39,993 nt of DNA, taken from a virus. Lineage: Duplodnaviria > Heunggongvirae > Uroviricota > Caudoviricetes. A program made the position numbers and the translations under genes. Each line of letters begins with the position of its first letter. The stretch's first letter is position 1. The stretch lies in the IMG/VR virus record IMGVR_UViG_2623620506_000005, positions 1 to 39,993 of that record, one strand, 5' to 3'. Below are positions 5,001-15,648 of the stretch, in pieces. A model generated the notes under the pieces. That model worked only from the letters and a program-made list of their open reading frames with translations. It was not told where the DNA came from and made no database searches.

Positions 5001-7799
5001 ATGTGGGGAAGTGAAAACAAACAAAATCTGGACGTACTGGATCCTGTGCAGTTGGTGCGTATCGAAGCGGTACACCGGGGGTTCCTTTACCAGCATCTTT
5101 ACGCTGTAGGCTGCTTACTTTTGGCGCAGAGGGCTGCTATGGACTCAGTAACTGTCGAGCTTGATGAGGATATTGAGCTGAAATCCAAACAGGAACGTCT
5201 CTACATTCAGGTTAAAACCCGTTCAAAGCCTATTATGCCCAACGATGTGTCGGGGGCTCTGGAGCGATTTGTAAAGCTCAGAAATGAGCATACTTCGGCA
5301 AACCGCGAAGGGGTGGCTTCTTTTGTGATTATTGTAAACCAGGCGCCTGGACCGCTGCTTCAGAAGATGATTGACGATAAAAAGCTTCCTTCTGATGTTC
5401 TTATTGTCTGGCCCCGGTCGACAGCTGGACGTCACCCGGCACTTCCGCCCGCATGGAGTACTCTGGCTGATGCGGCCACATGGTGTATCGCAGAAGCAGA
5501 AAAGCTGAAATTTTCACTATTGTCCCCAGAATCCTTGATTTGGAAGTTAGCAGGGTTGGTTCAGCTTGCCGCCACCGGAGGCGATACCAATGGACAACAT
5601 ACGTTTTTCACGGAGGAACTTACTGAACTATTTGAACAGTTGATCGTTCAGCTACAGGACTTTCCTGCACCACCAGCACTGTACCGCCCACAAAACGAAG
5701 AACCTTCTCTCACATCTGGTGAGCGGATCCGTATCCTTTGTGGACTCTCAGGTGCAGGCAAGACAGCGTGGGCCGCACAGGCCGCATTACACTCCACTGC
5801 ACTTTGTGCTTATTACGACACCGGTGATCTTCCCGGTCCAGCTCTGGCCAGTACGCTGGTGCGGGAGATGGCTGCTAGATTTACAGCCCGTGACCAAGAC
5901 GGTTTGCGCAGGATTTTGCTCCCCGGAGCCAGTGGTTTTGAGGCTCTTAGGAGTTTTGATACCTACCTGAAAGAGCAGGGTACCACCTTGGTGCTGGTTC
6001 TGGATAACGCCCATCGTGTACCTGCGGAAAATCTACGGGATGTTCTGAATGCAACTACACATATTCGTTTTGTGCTGTTGTGCCAGCCTCACGAAAACGT
6101 TCGCGAACTGGAGGTCATGACGGGGCTACAGCGCGAGGGCCTGCAGGGATGGAATCTCGATACGGTAGCTGTCGTTGTAAACGATATCGGAGGATTTGCC
6201 ACCGCTATGGGATACGAGCAGCTACGGGCTTACACTGGTGGTCTTCCCCTGTATGTAGAGAGCGCCGCAAAAATCGCCGTTTCTGACTATGAGCGTAGTG
6301 TCGATGCTCTGTGTGCTGAACTCCAGCAACAAACCCATACTGCGGAAACCGCCCAAGAAATTATTCTGTCACGTGTATTTCAGGGATTTGAATCACTACT
6401 TCAGAGCGCGCTGGCATTGTTCAGTCTCTCTGACGTAGGGCTGAGTCGCGAAGAGATTTCTACGCTCCTAATCAATTCGCTGAACATTTCACCAAGCAGT
6501 GCGGCTTCTTTAATTAGGAAAATGCGCGCTACTGGCACTATTGAAATTTATGGAAACCAGACCCTGAAGGTACATGATGCTGTCAGGGGGCTAGGACTGC
6601 AACATCTGGAACTGATGGATCAGGGTATATCGAACAAAGCGCTACTAGCGCTGAAAGACCTTTTAGTTGAAAGTCTTCATAATACCCGCAATACAAAACG
6701 GTTATCGTTGTTGACTCAACTTTATATTAAGCTTAATGATGTCACGACGTTGATCGAACTCTCAGGCCAAGAAATGTTTTATGAGATGGGCGTGACGGTC
6801 GACATTCTTGCAAGCTTGGAGCGTGCTGCAACATCGGACTTATTGGGACCTGTTCATAAATTCTGGGCATTGGATGGCCTTGTTTTCGTTGAGCTTAAAG
6901 ACGGAATATCCGACCACATTGCTCAGAGGTTAAACATCATGGGAGCTTTACTTGCGGAGCACAAGTTCGGCTATCAAGAAGAGATGGCCTATGCAATGAA
7001 ACGAATGTTATTTTCGGCAGAAAGCAATGATGCACGAGAAGTTCAAAAGCTGGCACAGGAAGTCCGCCCCCAACTCCCAGATGAAGAACATAAACGCATC
7101 TTTGACTACAACCATGCCATTGCACTCTGGAGATTAAAAAAACTCAAGGATGCTGAAACATTAAGCTGTAATGTTATACAAGGGTACTATTCTTTATTTG
7201 GTATCACACCTGCTGATGTCATAGGAAAAAACGCCGACGCATTATGGAAAACTATTAATCATTCCGAAAATATGCAGGAACACTTTAAACATATGGCTGA
7301 TGCTCTGGAGTTGCTGGCCAGAATTCGTGATGCGCAGGGAAAACTGTCACCATTACTGCGTATTCATTCGATGAAGTTCTACAATCTGGCCATGGCCCCG
7401 GAATCCATGGTCAGGGTGGGCCAAGATCTGGCGGATGAGTTTGTTGCCATAAAGGATTACGACGGTGCCAAGGAAGTCATGGAGCAACATGTCCTGCCGG
7501 TTGTCAATGAGGCAGGTCTAGTACATCGACTGATTCAGGTTCGAAGCCAGTACGCAGTCATATTGGCACTATCGGGTCAGCATAAAGCAGCTGATGTCGA
7601 AATGCAGCGCCTTGCTCCCTATATCGAAGGCCTCACAGGTGTACAGCGTCAAGAAATCCAAAATCAATCAAATTACATCGTACAGCTTGCCCATAAAGCA
7701 GCAAAGACTAAATTAACTGAAGTTTTTGGTGCGGTCGGCCGGAATGAACAATGCCCCTGTGGCTCGGGAATAAAGTACAAAAAATGTCACGGTGCCTGA
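5001..7799 (+). CDS. large multidomain protein: N-terminal PD-(D/E)xK-like nuclease domain (Cap4/DUF4297-like), P-loop NTPase, helical repeat region, C-terminal SEC-C zinc motif; candidate anti-phage defence protein
   Basis: 932 aa, AAGGA RBS. Residues 53-72 VELDEDIEL...IQVK (acidic cluster plus QxK); Walker A GLSGAGKT (248-255); Walker B-like LVLVLDNAH (331-338); about 550 aa helical region; C-terminal CPCGSGIKYKKCH. Confidence 0.7.
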   Translation: MWGSENKQNLDVLDPVQLVRIEAVHRGFLYQHLYAVGCLLLAQRAAMDSVTVELDEDIELKSKQERLYIQVKTRSKPIMPNDVSGALERFVKLRNEHTSANREGVASFVIIVNQAPGPLLQKMIDDKKLPSDVLIVWPRSTAGRHPALPPAWSTLADAATWCIAEAEKLKFSLLSPESLIWKLAGLVQLAATGGDTNGQHTFFTEELTELFEQLIVQLQDFPAPPALYRPQNEEPSLTSGERIRILCGLSGAGKTAWAAQAALHSTALCAYYDTGDLPGPALASTLVREMAARFTARDQDGLRRILLPGASGFEALRSFDTYLKEQGTTLVLVLDNAHRVPAENLRDVLNATTHIRFVLLCQPHENVRELEVMTGLQREGLQGWNLDTVAVVVNDIGGFATAMGYEQLRAYTGGLPLYVESAAKIAVSDYERSVDALCAELQQQTHTAETAQEIILSRVFQGFESLLQSALALFSLSDVGLSREEISTLLINSLNISPSSAASLIRKMRATGTIEIYGNQTLKVHDAVRGLGLQHLELMDQGISNKALLALKDLLVESLHNTRNTKRLSLLTQLYIKLNDVTTLIELSGQEMFYEMGVTVDILASLERAATSDLLGPVHKFWALDGLVFVELKDGISDHIAQRLNIMGALLAEHKFGYQEEMAYAMKRMLFSAESNDAREVQKLAQEVRPQLPDEEHKRIFDYNHAIALWRLKKLKDAETLSCNVIQGYYSLFGITPADVIGKNADALWKTINHSENMQEHFKHMADALELLARIRDAQGKLSPLLRIHSMKFYNLAMAPESMVRVGQDLADEFVAIKDYDGAKEVMEQHVLPVVNEAGLVHRLIQVRSQYAVILALSGQHKAADVEMQRLAPYIEGLTGVQRQEIQNQSNYIVQLAHKAAKTKLTEVFGAVGRNEQCPCGSGIKYKKCHGA

Positions 7800-8075
7800 G
7801 TCTTTGTACGACCATGCGGGCCTTATTGTCTTGCTATTGCTCTTATGGTTCGCCTTTCTGATTGATTTCATATTGGCGAGGTGACGGGAGTTAAGTAGAA
7901 TTGCTGCGGGTGCTTGAGGCTATCTGCCTCAGGCATGAACACCAAAGGCAGATAGAGAAAAGCCCCAGTTAACATTACGCGTCCTGCAAGACGCTTAACA
8001 TTAATCTGAGGCCATATCTATGCGACACATAGAGATTAGCCTCTTACGGACCGAAAGGTCAAGGAGAAGCAGGCT

Positions 8076-8231
8076 ATGAAGCAGCAAAAGGCGATGTTAA
8101 TCGCCCTGATCGTCATCTGTTTAACCGTCATAGTGACGGCACTGGTAACGAGGAAAGACCTCTGCGAGGTACGAATCCGAACCGGCCAGACGGAGGTCGC
8201 TGTCTTCACAGCTTACGAACCTGAGGAGTAA
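8076..8231 (+). CDS. hok: Hok/Gef-family type I toxin (small membrane toxin)
   Basis: 51 aa, MKQQKAMLIALIVICLTVIVTALVTRKDLCEVRIRTGQTEVAVFTAYEPEE; near-identical in pattern to remembered Gef/HokC. Not in ORF track (<60 aa). Confidence 0.85.
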   Translation: MKQQKAMLIALIVICLTVIVTALVTRKDLCEVRIRTGQTEVAVFTAYEPEE

Positions 8232-8300
8232 GAGACCAGGCGAGGGAGAAATCCCTCGCCACCTCTGATGTGTCAGGCATCCTCAATGCACCCGCACTTA

Positions 8301-8325
8301 ACCCGCTTCGGCGGGTTTATTTTAT
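8301..8325 (+). terminator. rho-independent terminator downstream of hok
   Basis: Hairpin ACCCGC-TTCG-GCGGGT followed by a T-run. Confidence 0.6.
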
Positions 8326-8689
8326 CTGTAAATATTTTTATAAAAATAATGCCCACACACAGCATAAAACAAAAAGTATCACAGATAAAAAAGGAGCGTA
8401 ATGTGCAGATTTGTTGTTTTCCATATTTACTCACTTTAACATAATCAATATTGATATGGTTGTTGTTTCGGTGGTTTCAAACGAGATGTTATGGTGATCT
8501 GGTAAAATTACATAACATTAAAATTTAATTTATCTAATCGCTTTTAATAATAAGCGTTGTGTTTATCCCAACAATCTGTTGTTTGACTTTTATTCCATTA
8601 ATGTAGGGGCTTTACACTGGAACCAGTTTATTTATACTTTATACGCCAGCCTGAACAACTGGCACCTGCTGCGCCAGCAGAGACAACCG

Positions 8690-15494: not shown

Positions 15495-15570
<76 letters not shown>

Positions 15571-15573
15571 TAT

Positions 15574-15648
<75 letters not shown>

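Follow-up and report, generated by a model that had tools for sequence, protein, structure and literature searches.

The hok/sok (parB) locus of plasmid R1 has its elements in the order promoter, tac, ucb, Sok terminator hairpin, mok Shine-Dalgarno (SD) sequence and AUG, anti-SD hairpin, hok, fbi and terminator. The established model for the R1 hok mRNA is a switch of tac to ucb. The mok of R1 is an ORF of about 70 codons in the +1 frame that overlaps hok, and the rule for mok is that its translation matters and its product does not. R1 hok/sok also excludes T4.

A lambdoid cassette of this kind, hokW-sokW, lies between the replication genes and the Q antiterminator of Sakai prophage 5 (Sp5) in E. 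coli O157:H7 (PMC8621323). HokW is toxic and 44% identical to the Hok of R1. Its antitoxin is the RNA sokW, of which 71 nt are complementary to the leader of hokW; this RNA was seen in a Northern blot probed with the sense-strand oligonucleotide YO-592, and it needs RNase III and Hfq (PMC8621323). A 'pro-less' mutant, in which the promoter hexamer TAACCT was replaced with primers YO-421/YO-422, loses the antitoxin activity (PMC8621323). When the prophage is induced with mitomycin C the sokW RNA disappears, and hokW-sokW speeds up growth arrest and doubles the phage release (PMC8621323). The other close relative is hokD (relF) of the Qin prophage in K-12, where 6% of the mRNA is edited to Cys at the conserved Tyr47 position (PMC12214031).

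The window analysed here is the whole stretch of 39,993 nucleotides of a tailed phage genome. Very probably, one region of it, about 430 bp long, is a type I toxin-antitoxin cassette of the hok/sok type that is complete and seems to be intact, of the HokD/HokW kind found in lambdoid prophages. The system is already known, it is found in its known place, and many E. coli genomes have the sequence under the name hokD. The features are as follows, with the basis for each in brackets.

7873-7901, plus: hok promoter-like site, with -35 TTGGCG at 7873-7878, a 17-nt spacer and -10 TAGAAT at 7896-7901 (consensus scan)
7908-8325, plus: predicted full-length hok mRNA, about 415 nt (Rfam leader match, terminator, fold, end of homology in relatives)
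7908-7919, plus: tac element GGGUGCUUGAGG, predicted partner of fbi as long as the RNA is full-length and of ucb once the 3' end is trimmed (MFE fold, truncated folds)
7920-7955, plus: stable 5' hairpin from an inverted repeat (sequence, MFE fold)
7926-7938, plus: ucb element GCCUCAGGCAUGA, alternative partner of tac (folds of truncated RNA)
7956-8028, minus: predicted Sok antisense RNA, about 72 nt, with a probable start near 8026-8028 and end at about 7956 (fold and homology to sokW, from which the ends are inferred)
8008-8011, plus: mok SD GAGG, within a dcb-like box CUGAGGC at 8006-8012 (invariant in 57 haplotypes)
8013-8037, plus: hypervariable patch, comprising the loop and inner stem of the mok-start hairpin and corresponding to the Sok 5' tail sequence (entropy, alleles)
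8020-8079, plus: mok leader ORF of 19 codons, MRHIEISLLRTERSRRSRL (sequence, allele comparison)
8033-8062, minus: putative Sok promoter, with -35 TTGACC at 8062-8057, an 18-nt spacer and -10 TAATCT at 8038-8033 (read from the sequence, homology)
8042-8067, plus: hairpin sequestering the hok SD (pair table)
8076-8231, plus: hok toxin gene, 51 aa, HokD sequence (Pfam HOK_GEF and CDS identity to the WP4 hokD)
8214-8216, plus: Tyr47 codon UAC within UUACGAA (8213-8219), the TadA A-to-I editing motif, Tyr to Cys (sequence)
8281-8293, plus: fbi element CCUCAAUGCACCC, 3' partner of tac (MFE fold, haplotype helix 1)
8300-8325, plus: intrinsic terminator of the hok mRNA (terminator call; stem kept in 57 haplotypes, helix 17)

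The toxin and its described relatives

The 51-aa ORF, with the translation MKQQKAMLIALIVICLTVIVTALVTRKDLCEVRIRTGQTEVAVFTAYEPEE, is a member of the Hok/Gef family by its size, its profile match, its hydrophobic N-terminal helix and its Cys and editable Tyr residues, as the first-pass annotation had proposed. It matches Pfam HOK_GEF (PF01848) over profile positions 1-42 of 42 with E=1.2e-23 and 82.9 bits, the gathering cut-off being 22. Residues 7-24 are hydrophobic, Cys15, Cys30 and Tyr47 can be read from the sequence, and the motifs TRKDLCEV and GQTEVAVF are found at residues 25-32 and 37-44. The matches to the NCBIfam Hok subfamily models were below their curated cut-offs (48.5 as compared to 73), and a HokD-specific call is therefore not given by these models. 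In the alignment the CDS is 100% the same as the annotated RefSeq hokD of strain WP4 (WP_000813254.1, 'HokD'), and a 100% identical protein is encoded by 80 phage contigs. By analogy with its homologues, the toxin of the window would be expected to depolarise the membrane or lyse the cell when expressed; overexpression of tagged CDSs led to lysis for every studied homologue but HokB and PndA-R483 (10.1101/2025.08.07.668861).

Comparisons with hokW-sokW were made through leaders identified by exact matches to the published probes. The cassette of the window has the same position between replication genes and antiterminator as hokW-sokW, and the two share a 51-aa Hok with the same N-terminus and the leader architecture; the Sok promoter and body of the window are predicted at the position they have in sokW. 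A locus containing the exact sokW and hokW probe sequences (L009) differs from the window in 21 of 421 aligned columns. The C-terminus is …FVDYESEK in HokW (primer YO-560) and …FTAYEPEE in the window, and the two have different alleles of the patch that spans the start of mok and the 5' tail of Sok. The upstream ATG of L009, whose allele is of the sokW type, lies 57 nt ahead of hok and in its frame; the window has the 19-codon ORF with its AUGA end. The Sok -10 is TAATCT in the window and TAACCT in sokW, and the -35 with its spacer is TTGACC with 18 nt as compared to TTGCCT with 17 nt. The locus of the Stx2 phage PPompW was considered as a hokW locus and rejected, as its protein is identical to the Hok of the window and its leader is another allele.

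The K-12 Qin prophage encodes the same 51-aa HokD, and DUF968/ydfU and an antiterminator follow downstream, as in the window. The difference lies in the leader, which is complete in the window. In the K-12-type arrangement relB-relE-hokD, represented by two loci (L034 and L038), the homology to the window starts only at about 8062, and the hok promoter, tac, ucb, Sok and mok are all missing.

The element order of R1 hok/sok is that of the window, and both Pfam and Rfam place the two in one family. The blocks GCTTGAGGCT.TCTGCCTCA, TAGCCTCTTAC, CAAGGAGAAG and GCTTACGAA are common to the window and an R1-type plasmid locus; the tac block and the TadA motif UUACGAA are also kept in that locus, and TTGCGC-17-TATCCT stands at the position of the predicted Sok promoter of the window. 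The setting is different, a prophage for the window and a plasmid for R1, and the role in the window may be to assist lysis and not to stabilise a plasmid.

The hok mRNA, the antisense RNA and the mok leader

The predicted start of hok transcription, G7908, is position 1 of the Rfam model RF01794. This model is matched on the plus strand at 7908-8078 over its whole length (1-157 of 157, not truncated) with 106 bits against a gathering cut-off of 59 and E=3e-23. Only the -10 of the hok promoter is inside the conserved cassette, since the homology to most relatives starts at 7885-7896. The transcript 7908-8322 (415 nt) folds at -176.2 kcal/mol as compared to -122.2 +/- 6.3 for shuffled sequences (z=-8.55), and none of 100 shuffles folded as well. 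It is predicted from the folds that tac and fbi lock the full-length RNA and that tac and ucb form the alternative. The tac-fbi helix has 12 pairs in the MFE fold and is 100% paired across the 57 haplotypes, though nearly invariant in them. When the RNA was cut in silico to 8280 or shorter, the 5' end refolded and 7908-7920 paired with 7926-7938, which is the tac-ucb pairing.

The arms of the upstream inverted repeat, CTATCTGCCT at 7920-7929 and AGGCAGATAG at 7946-7955, are paired in the MFE fold. One pair in this hairpin (helix 2) shows a compensatory AU-to-GC change, in four sequences. Over the 57 close haplotypes 97.6% of the pairs are kept, nearly all of them invariant, and both sides have changed in that one pair only; the relatives are too similar for the covariation to add to or weaken the Rfam evidence. 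The hok SD, AAGGAG at 8061-8066, is held in a hairpin where UCUU 8042-8045 pairs with GAGA 8064-8067, i.e. the last three SD bases and A8067, around a GACC-GAAA-GGUC tetraloop stem, and the inner stem of this hairpin is GACC/GGUC in one allele and UGCC/GGCA in another. According to the pair table for the full-length fold, the hok AUG region is paired with 8206-8214, the mok SD is paired with 7962-7966, and the mok ATG is base-paired too. The transcript ends at a stem of 7 pairs (5 G-C) with a loop of 4 at 8300-8317, followed by TATTTTAT.

Most of what the first-pass annotation had read from the sequence is in agreement with these results. The type I toxin locus it described is supported by Rfam from end to end, by Pfam, by the fold and by a predicted Sok homologous to sokW. 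The inverted repeats do act as fold-back elements in the predicted structure, the downstream terminator has its stem and T-run, and the folding it had suggested as a check gave the tac-fbi and tac-ucb pairings. The extent it had assigned, 7940-8330, covers a real locus, and the true unit is slightly larger, from the promoter at 7873 to the end of the T-run at 8325.

On the minus strand, the predicted Sok consists of a single-stranded 5' tail at about 8028-8013, lying over the mok AUG, a long hairpin at 8012-7962 and the terminator GGGGCUUUUCUCU. The tail leaves about 14-16 nt unpaired ahead of the hairpin. The fold has -32.2 kcal/mol and z=-5.89, with the hairpin and U-run on the minus strand. 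Sok had been expected within 8000-8080 on this strand, which holds for the promoter and the 5' end, while the body of the RNA extends upstream to about 7956. The proposed search of the minus strand found the hairpin and U-run, but in the consensus promoter scan the hok promoter was called and the Sok promoter was not; its -10 TAATCT agrees with the consensus at 3 of 6 positions, and an 18-nt spacer separates it from the -35. Sok was therefore placed by its homology to sokW. The -10 TAATCT has the position of TAACCT in sokW, the hexamer that was replaced in the promoter mutant, and the equivalent of probe YO-592 is 7999-8026 in the window.

A leader ORF with its own SD, running through the region of the hok SD, is present in the window. 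Its ATG at 8020-8022 and its SD are invariant in 57 of 57 haplotypes, though they lie beside or within the hypervariable patch. The reading path crosses the anti-SD hairpin, and the stop UGA at 8077-8079 overlaps the hok AUG at 8076-8078, mok and hok sharing the 4 nt AUGA. A long ORF overlapping hok in another frame, as in R1, is not present in the window, and the overlapping mok frame of the classical form that had been assumed at first was consequently given up. Relative to other alleles, the mok of the window is shorter through a 2-nt deletion. As it is not the classical long +1 ORF, its coupling to hok is an inference: translation of mok would melt the anti-SD hairpin, and ribosomes that have terminated on mok would reinitiate at the hok AUG, in keeping with the rule that mok counts by its translation alone.

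The mok frame was compared in the 80 phage contigs that encode the identical Hok, together with the reference loci. In 64 of 80 loci the mok ATG shares the frame of hok at a distance of 57 nt on its upstream side, which predicts an extended Hok of 70 aa, and this in-frame ORF is annotated as the gene in some phage records. The 19-codon form is found in 12 of 80 loci, i.e. in the window and, as the same allele, in 11 other phage contigs. A classical +1 mok ORF, of 68 codons, is present in one locus only, that of phage Rac. In the two K-12-type loci relB-relE is fused about 14 nt upstream of hok and the leader is absent, and in one locus a transposase gene lies directly 5' of hok and the leader homology is lost. 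With a 49-nt probe (8001-8049) and an identity of at least 99%, the mok-short allele turned up in 798 records; 804 of 5426 E. coli genomes (15%) have it, so it is not a private lesion. The prediction of mok has been described as not trivial (10.1101/2025.08.07.668861), and a literature search on variation in the mok frame gave nothing relevant.

Genomic setting and competing readings

The region 7800-8400 is matched in 4728 of 5426 complete E. coli genomes. DNA that is 97-98% identical occurs in Qin-like lambdoid prophages of E. coli, annotated as 'type I toxin-antitoxin system toxin HokD', and there are 102 matching phage records, with names that include HokD toxin, MokW, 'host killer protein' and 'gef: phage maintenance protein'. 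Strain WP4 has the same order as the window: replication-region genes, a DUF977 protein, a 932-aa SEC-C protein, hokD, a DUF968/ydfU protein and an antiterminator. Of 82 related loci, 60 begin to match the window at 7885-7896 and a further 18 at 7823-7843; in 73 the match ends at 8313-8329, and the homology to 80 phage loci has its end at 8318-8328. With these sharp homology borders the hok cassette is a discrete module of about 430 bp.

In 77 loci, the ORFs closest to hok on its upstream side make up at least 35 clusters with no relation to one another. Ten large representatives were picked for a PADLOC test because they looked defence-like, and five of these ten had strong matches (Septu PtuA, Kiwa KwaB, PD-Lambda-2_C, PDC-S15 and PDC-S39) and a sixth a weak one (Hp3). 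Ten other upstream neighbours include DUF551 proteins, QueH, a solute-binding protein, a HAD hydrolase and a kinase fragment, and three of these ten had no Pfam match. Most of the upstream neighbours are not known defence genes, but some are. Hence hok borders a variable accessory slot, which sometimes contains defence genes, and is not the partner of the 932-aa protein.

The proposal that hok/sok and the 932-aa Cap4-nuclease-like/AAA/SEC-C protein form one defence unit, for instance a sensor-effector pair, comes from their position: both are on the same strand, the 932-aa gene stops at 7799 and hok starts at 7908, with 108 bp and no called terminator between them. The 932-aa protein also has weak matches of the defence type, Cap4_nuclease (5.7e-6), LmuA (5.7e-7) and DUF4297, as well as matches to AAA ATPase and SEC-C; in PADLOC there is no Hok model, and this protein gave weak domain matches only. 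Outside the window, though, the two genes are adjacent in only one of the 82 related loci, that of E. coli WP4. The sharp borders and the many different upstream neighbours of the cassette also argue against a common unit, as do its own promoter and its own terminator, and in a published genome-wide test hok was enriched in prophages and without enrichment near defence systems (10.1101/2025.08.07.668861). With no conserved linkage, the reading as one defence unit is already largely refuted and can be regarded as highly improbable, and the defence/addiction islet of the first-pass annotation comes down to co-location. As a candidate for a multi-gene anti-phage system, the pair was rejected on its co-occurrence in 1 of 82 loci. 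The self-contained cassette is the reading we prefer, and two other views of it have to be considered.

One is that the cassette is structurally intact and functionally silent, a relic carried along with the prophage, as has been proposed for chromosomal hok loci. The hokD of K-12 has lost its whole leader to relBE, an arrangement repeated in L034 and L038, and the shortening of mok in the window could be taken in the same direction. Post-segregational killing by the native chromosomal hokA, hokB and hokC failed in earlier work, according to the account of it in 10.1101/2025.08.07.668861, and an intact structure is thus no guarantee of activity. On the other hand, all regulatory elements are present in the window and pair as expected, the mok SD and ATG have stayed invariant beside or within the hypervariable patch, the allele of the window has a frequency of 15% at 99% identity or more, and the close homologue hokW-sokW is an active toxin-antitoxin pair that affects phage release (PMC8621323). 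A silent relic therefore seems unlikely to us. The other view, that the antitoxin is a small RNA from the plus strand at 7908-8078, the same strand as hok, would follow from the name of the Rfam family, since RF01794 is a 'sok antitoxin' model and its match is on that strand. But the match starts at the predicted hok start and ends in the hok AUG, which means that the model describes the leader of the hok mRNA. The sokW that has been detected is complementary to the hok leader, as it is found with a sense-strand probe (PMC8621323), and the homologous promoter, hairpin and U-run are on the minus strand. The plus-strand match was rejected as an antitoxin with Sok lying opposite to it, and there is next to no probability left for this view.

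Mechanism, role and the variable patch

The first three steps of the mechanism proposed for the intact cassette are drawn from the sequence and the predicted structure, and the last three from R1 hok/sok and hokW-sokW. The weak promoter at 7873-7901 would give the hok mRNA of about 415 nt starting at 7908. In the full-length RNA tac would be paired with fbi, and the mok SD, the mok AUG and the hok SD would all be base-paired, so that the RNA should be translationally inert. From the minus strand, the stronger promoter at 8062-8033 would produce Sok, an RNA with a single-stranded 5' tail complementary to the region where mok starts. Slow trimming of the 3' end would then remove fbi, tac would change to ucb, and the mok-start hairpin would become exposed. 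As long as Sok is present it would pair there, block the translation of mok and lead to cleavage by RNase III. When the unstable Sok runs out, after loss of the element, shut-off of transcription by an infecting phage, or induction of the prophage, the 19-codon mok would be translated; its ribosomes would melt the anti-SD hairpin, stop at the UGA and restart at the overlapping hok AUG. Hok in the inner membrane would then depolarise or lyse the cell, and editing of the mRNA by TadA at Tyr47 (to Cys) is a possible extra control of the toxicity.

By analogy with hokW-sokW, the most likely role of the cassette in the prophage would be to make host killing and lysis faster upon induction. Stabilisation of the prophage and exclusion of other phages are further possible roles.

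The sequence variation is concentrated at one place in the cassette. Among 62 distinct haplotypes the entropy has its peak, 0.75 bits, at 8018-8027, inside a variable stretch at 7968-8037, and it is close to 0 in the CDS. The toxin CDS is almost invariant in these haplotypes, synonymous sites included, where the identity of the protein was itself a criterion for selecting the sample. The patch at 8013-8037 has 14 alleles, and all of them fold as a hairpin closed by GAGGC/GCCUC with -11.5 to -14.7 kcal/mol.

The patch is at the same time the 5' tail of Sok and the target of Sok.

It is conceivable, as a tentative idea that we hold for possible and rather doubtful, that the patch acts as a specificity code, by which the Sok of each prophage silences its own hok only. 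The allele of the window is found at 884 places in 804 genomes, with at most two per genome, and in a rough check no obvious avoidance of the same allele within genomes was seen, since 80 of the 804 genomes have two copies of the window allele. As identical alleles are not obviously kept out of one and the same genome, the idea of a specificity code is unproven.

The analysis gives a complete hokD locus, independent of K-12, with all its elements placed. It also shows that the mok frame is not conserved, whereas the mok SD and AUG are, and it reveals a sharply localised hypervariable patch at the interface between Sok and its target, in a cassette that flanks a lambdoid cargo slot. The region 7873-8325 is a self-contained module of toxin and antisense RNA, and an evaluation of the 932-aa candidate defence gene should keep the two apart. 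If the patch is indeed a specificity code, its diversification would have produced the various reading frames and lengths of mok (in frame, +1, or 19 codons with AUGA coupling) as a free by-product. Such a code would also imply that several lambdoid prophages in one cell can keep independent timers for addiction and lysis.

Variation in the hok leader

Among the 57 distinct hok-cassette sequences of the related loci, variation is concentrated in one sharply bounded hypervariable patch of 14 alleles (window 8013-8037, columns 106-131 of alignment A2). Both the start of the leader ORF mok and the 5' tail of the predicted antisense RNA, Sok, fall within it. The hairpin, the SD and the ATG are kept despite the variability, and, in contrast to the patch, the coding sequence of the toxin is near-invariant, synonymous sites included.

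The loci also differ in whether the mok ATG and hok share a reading frame. We compared L003-L082 (with hok at about 6001-6153 in most), L002 and L195. The ATG was in frame with hok in 64 of 80 loci, predicting an extended Hok of 70 aa, which some phage records annotate under the name 'gef' or 'MokW'; judged by eye, the ATG is in frame in the R1-type plasmid locus L083 as well. A mok ORF of 19 codons, coupled to hok by AUGA, was seen in 12 loci, and in the phage Rac the ATG opens a +1 ORF of 68 codons.

In some relatives the leader is altered altogether. In two loci, L034 and L038 (hok at 6001), relB-relE stands in place of the whole leader, with its end about 60 nt 5' of hokD, and similarity to the window starts only at 8062. 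This is the relB-relE-hokD arrangement of the K-12 type. A third locus, L079 (hok at 6001), has an ORF of 331 aa on the opposite strand upstream of hok, resembling a transposase or integrase. The end of this ORF is 4 nt from the boundary of the upstream region examined and about 165 nt before the hok ATG. The leader homology is lost in L079, consistent with disruption by an insertion sequence.

Strand of the Rfam match and an editing motif

The match to the Rfam family RF01794, named 'sok antitoxin', is on the sense strand (window 7908-8078, +), where it covers the leader of the hok mRNA as far as the AUG of hok; the antisense strand, that of Sok, is not matched. An annotation transferred automatically from RF01794 would place the antitoxin on the wrong strand.

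Around the Tyr47 codon of hok we found UUACGAA (8213-8219, +). This is the motif for A-to-I editing by TadA that has been reported in the mRNAs of hokC, hokD and hokE (PMC12214031). In the MFE fold the hok start region, 8071-8079, pairs with 8206-8214, so that the 5' edge of the motif (8213-8214) lies inside that helix and the editing site, A8215, adjoins it.

Surroundings of the cassette

The following features lie around the locus and further downstream:

5001-7799, + strand: gene of a 932-aa protein
8330-8580: AT-rich spacer of about 250 bp, 3' of the hok terminator
8418-8445, + strand: promoter-like site in this spacer
15495-15567 and 15574-15645, + strand: two neighbouring tRNA genes (73.8 and 65.6 bits)

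The tRNA pair (15495-15645) is located within the prophage; lambdoid and Stx-type phages commonly carry tRNA genes upstream of their late or lysis region. No gene is annotated in the stretch of E. coli WP4 equivalent to the spacer.

The 932-aa protein is Cap4-nuclease/DUF4297/LmuA-like in its N-terminal part (residues ~25-120); an AAA ATPase follows at residues ~240-365, and the C-terminus bears a SEC-C zinc motif. No full-length family match was found in PADLOC or NCBIfam. WP4 carries the same gene, with at least one amino-acid difference.

In five relatives (L054, L013, L015, L052 and L062) the slot that directly precedes the hok cassette, 1-4 kb 5' of hok, is filled by genes of known or candidate defence systems: Septu PtuA, Kiwa KwaB, PD-Lambda-2_C, PDC-S15 and PDC-S39. 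Other related contigs carry DUF551, QueH, HAD, solute-binding or kinase genes there. The slot is a variable cargo hotspot, of which hok forms the fixed edge.
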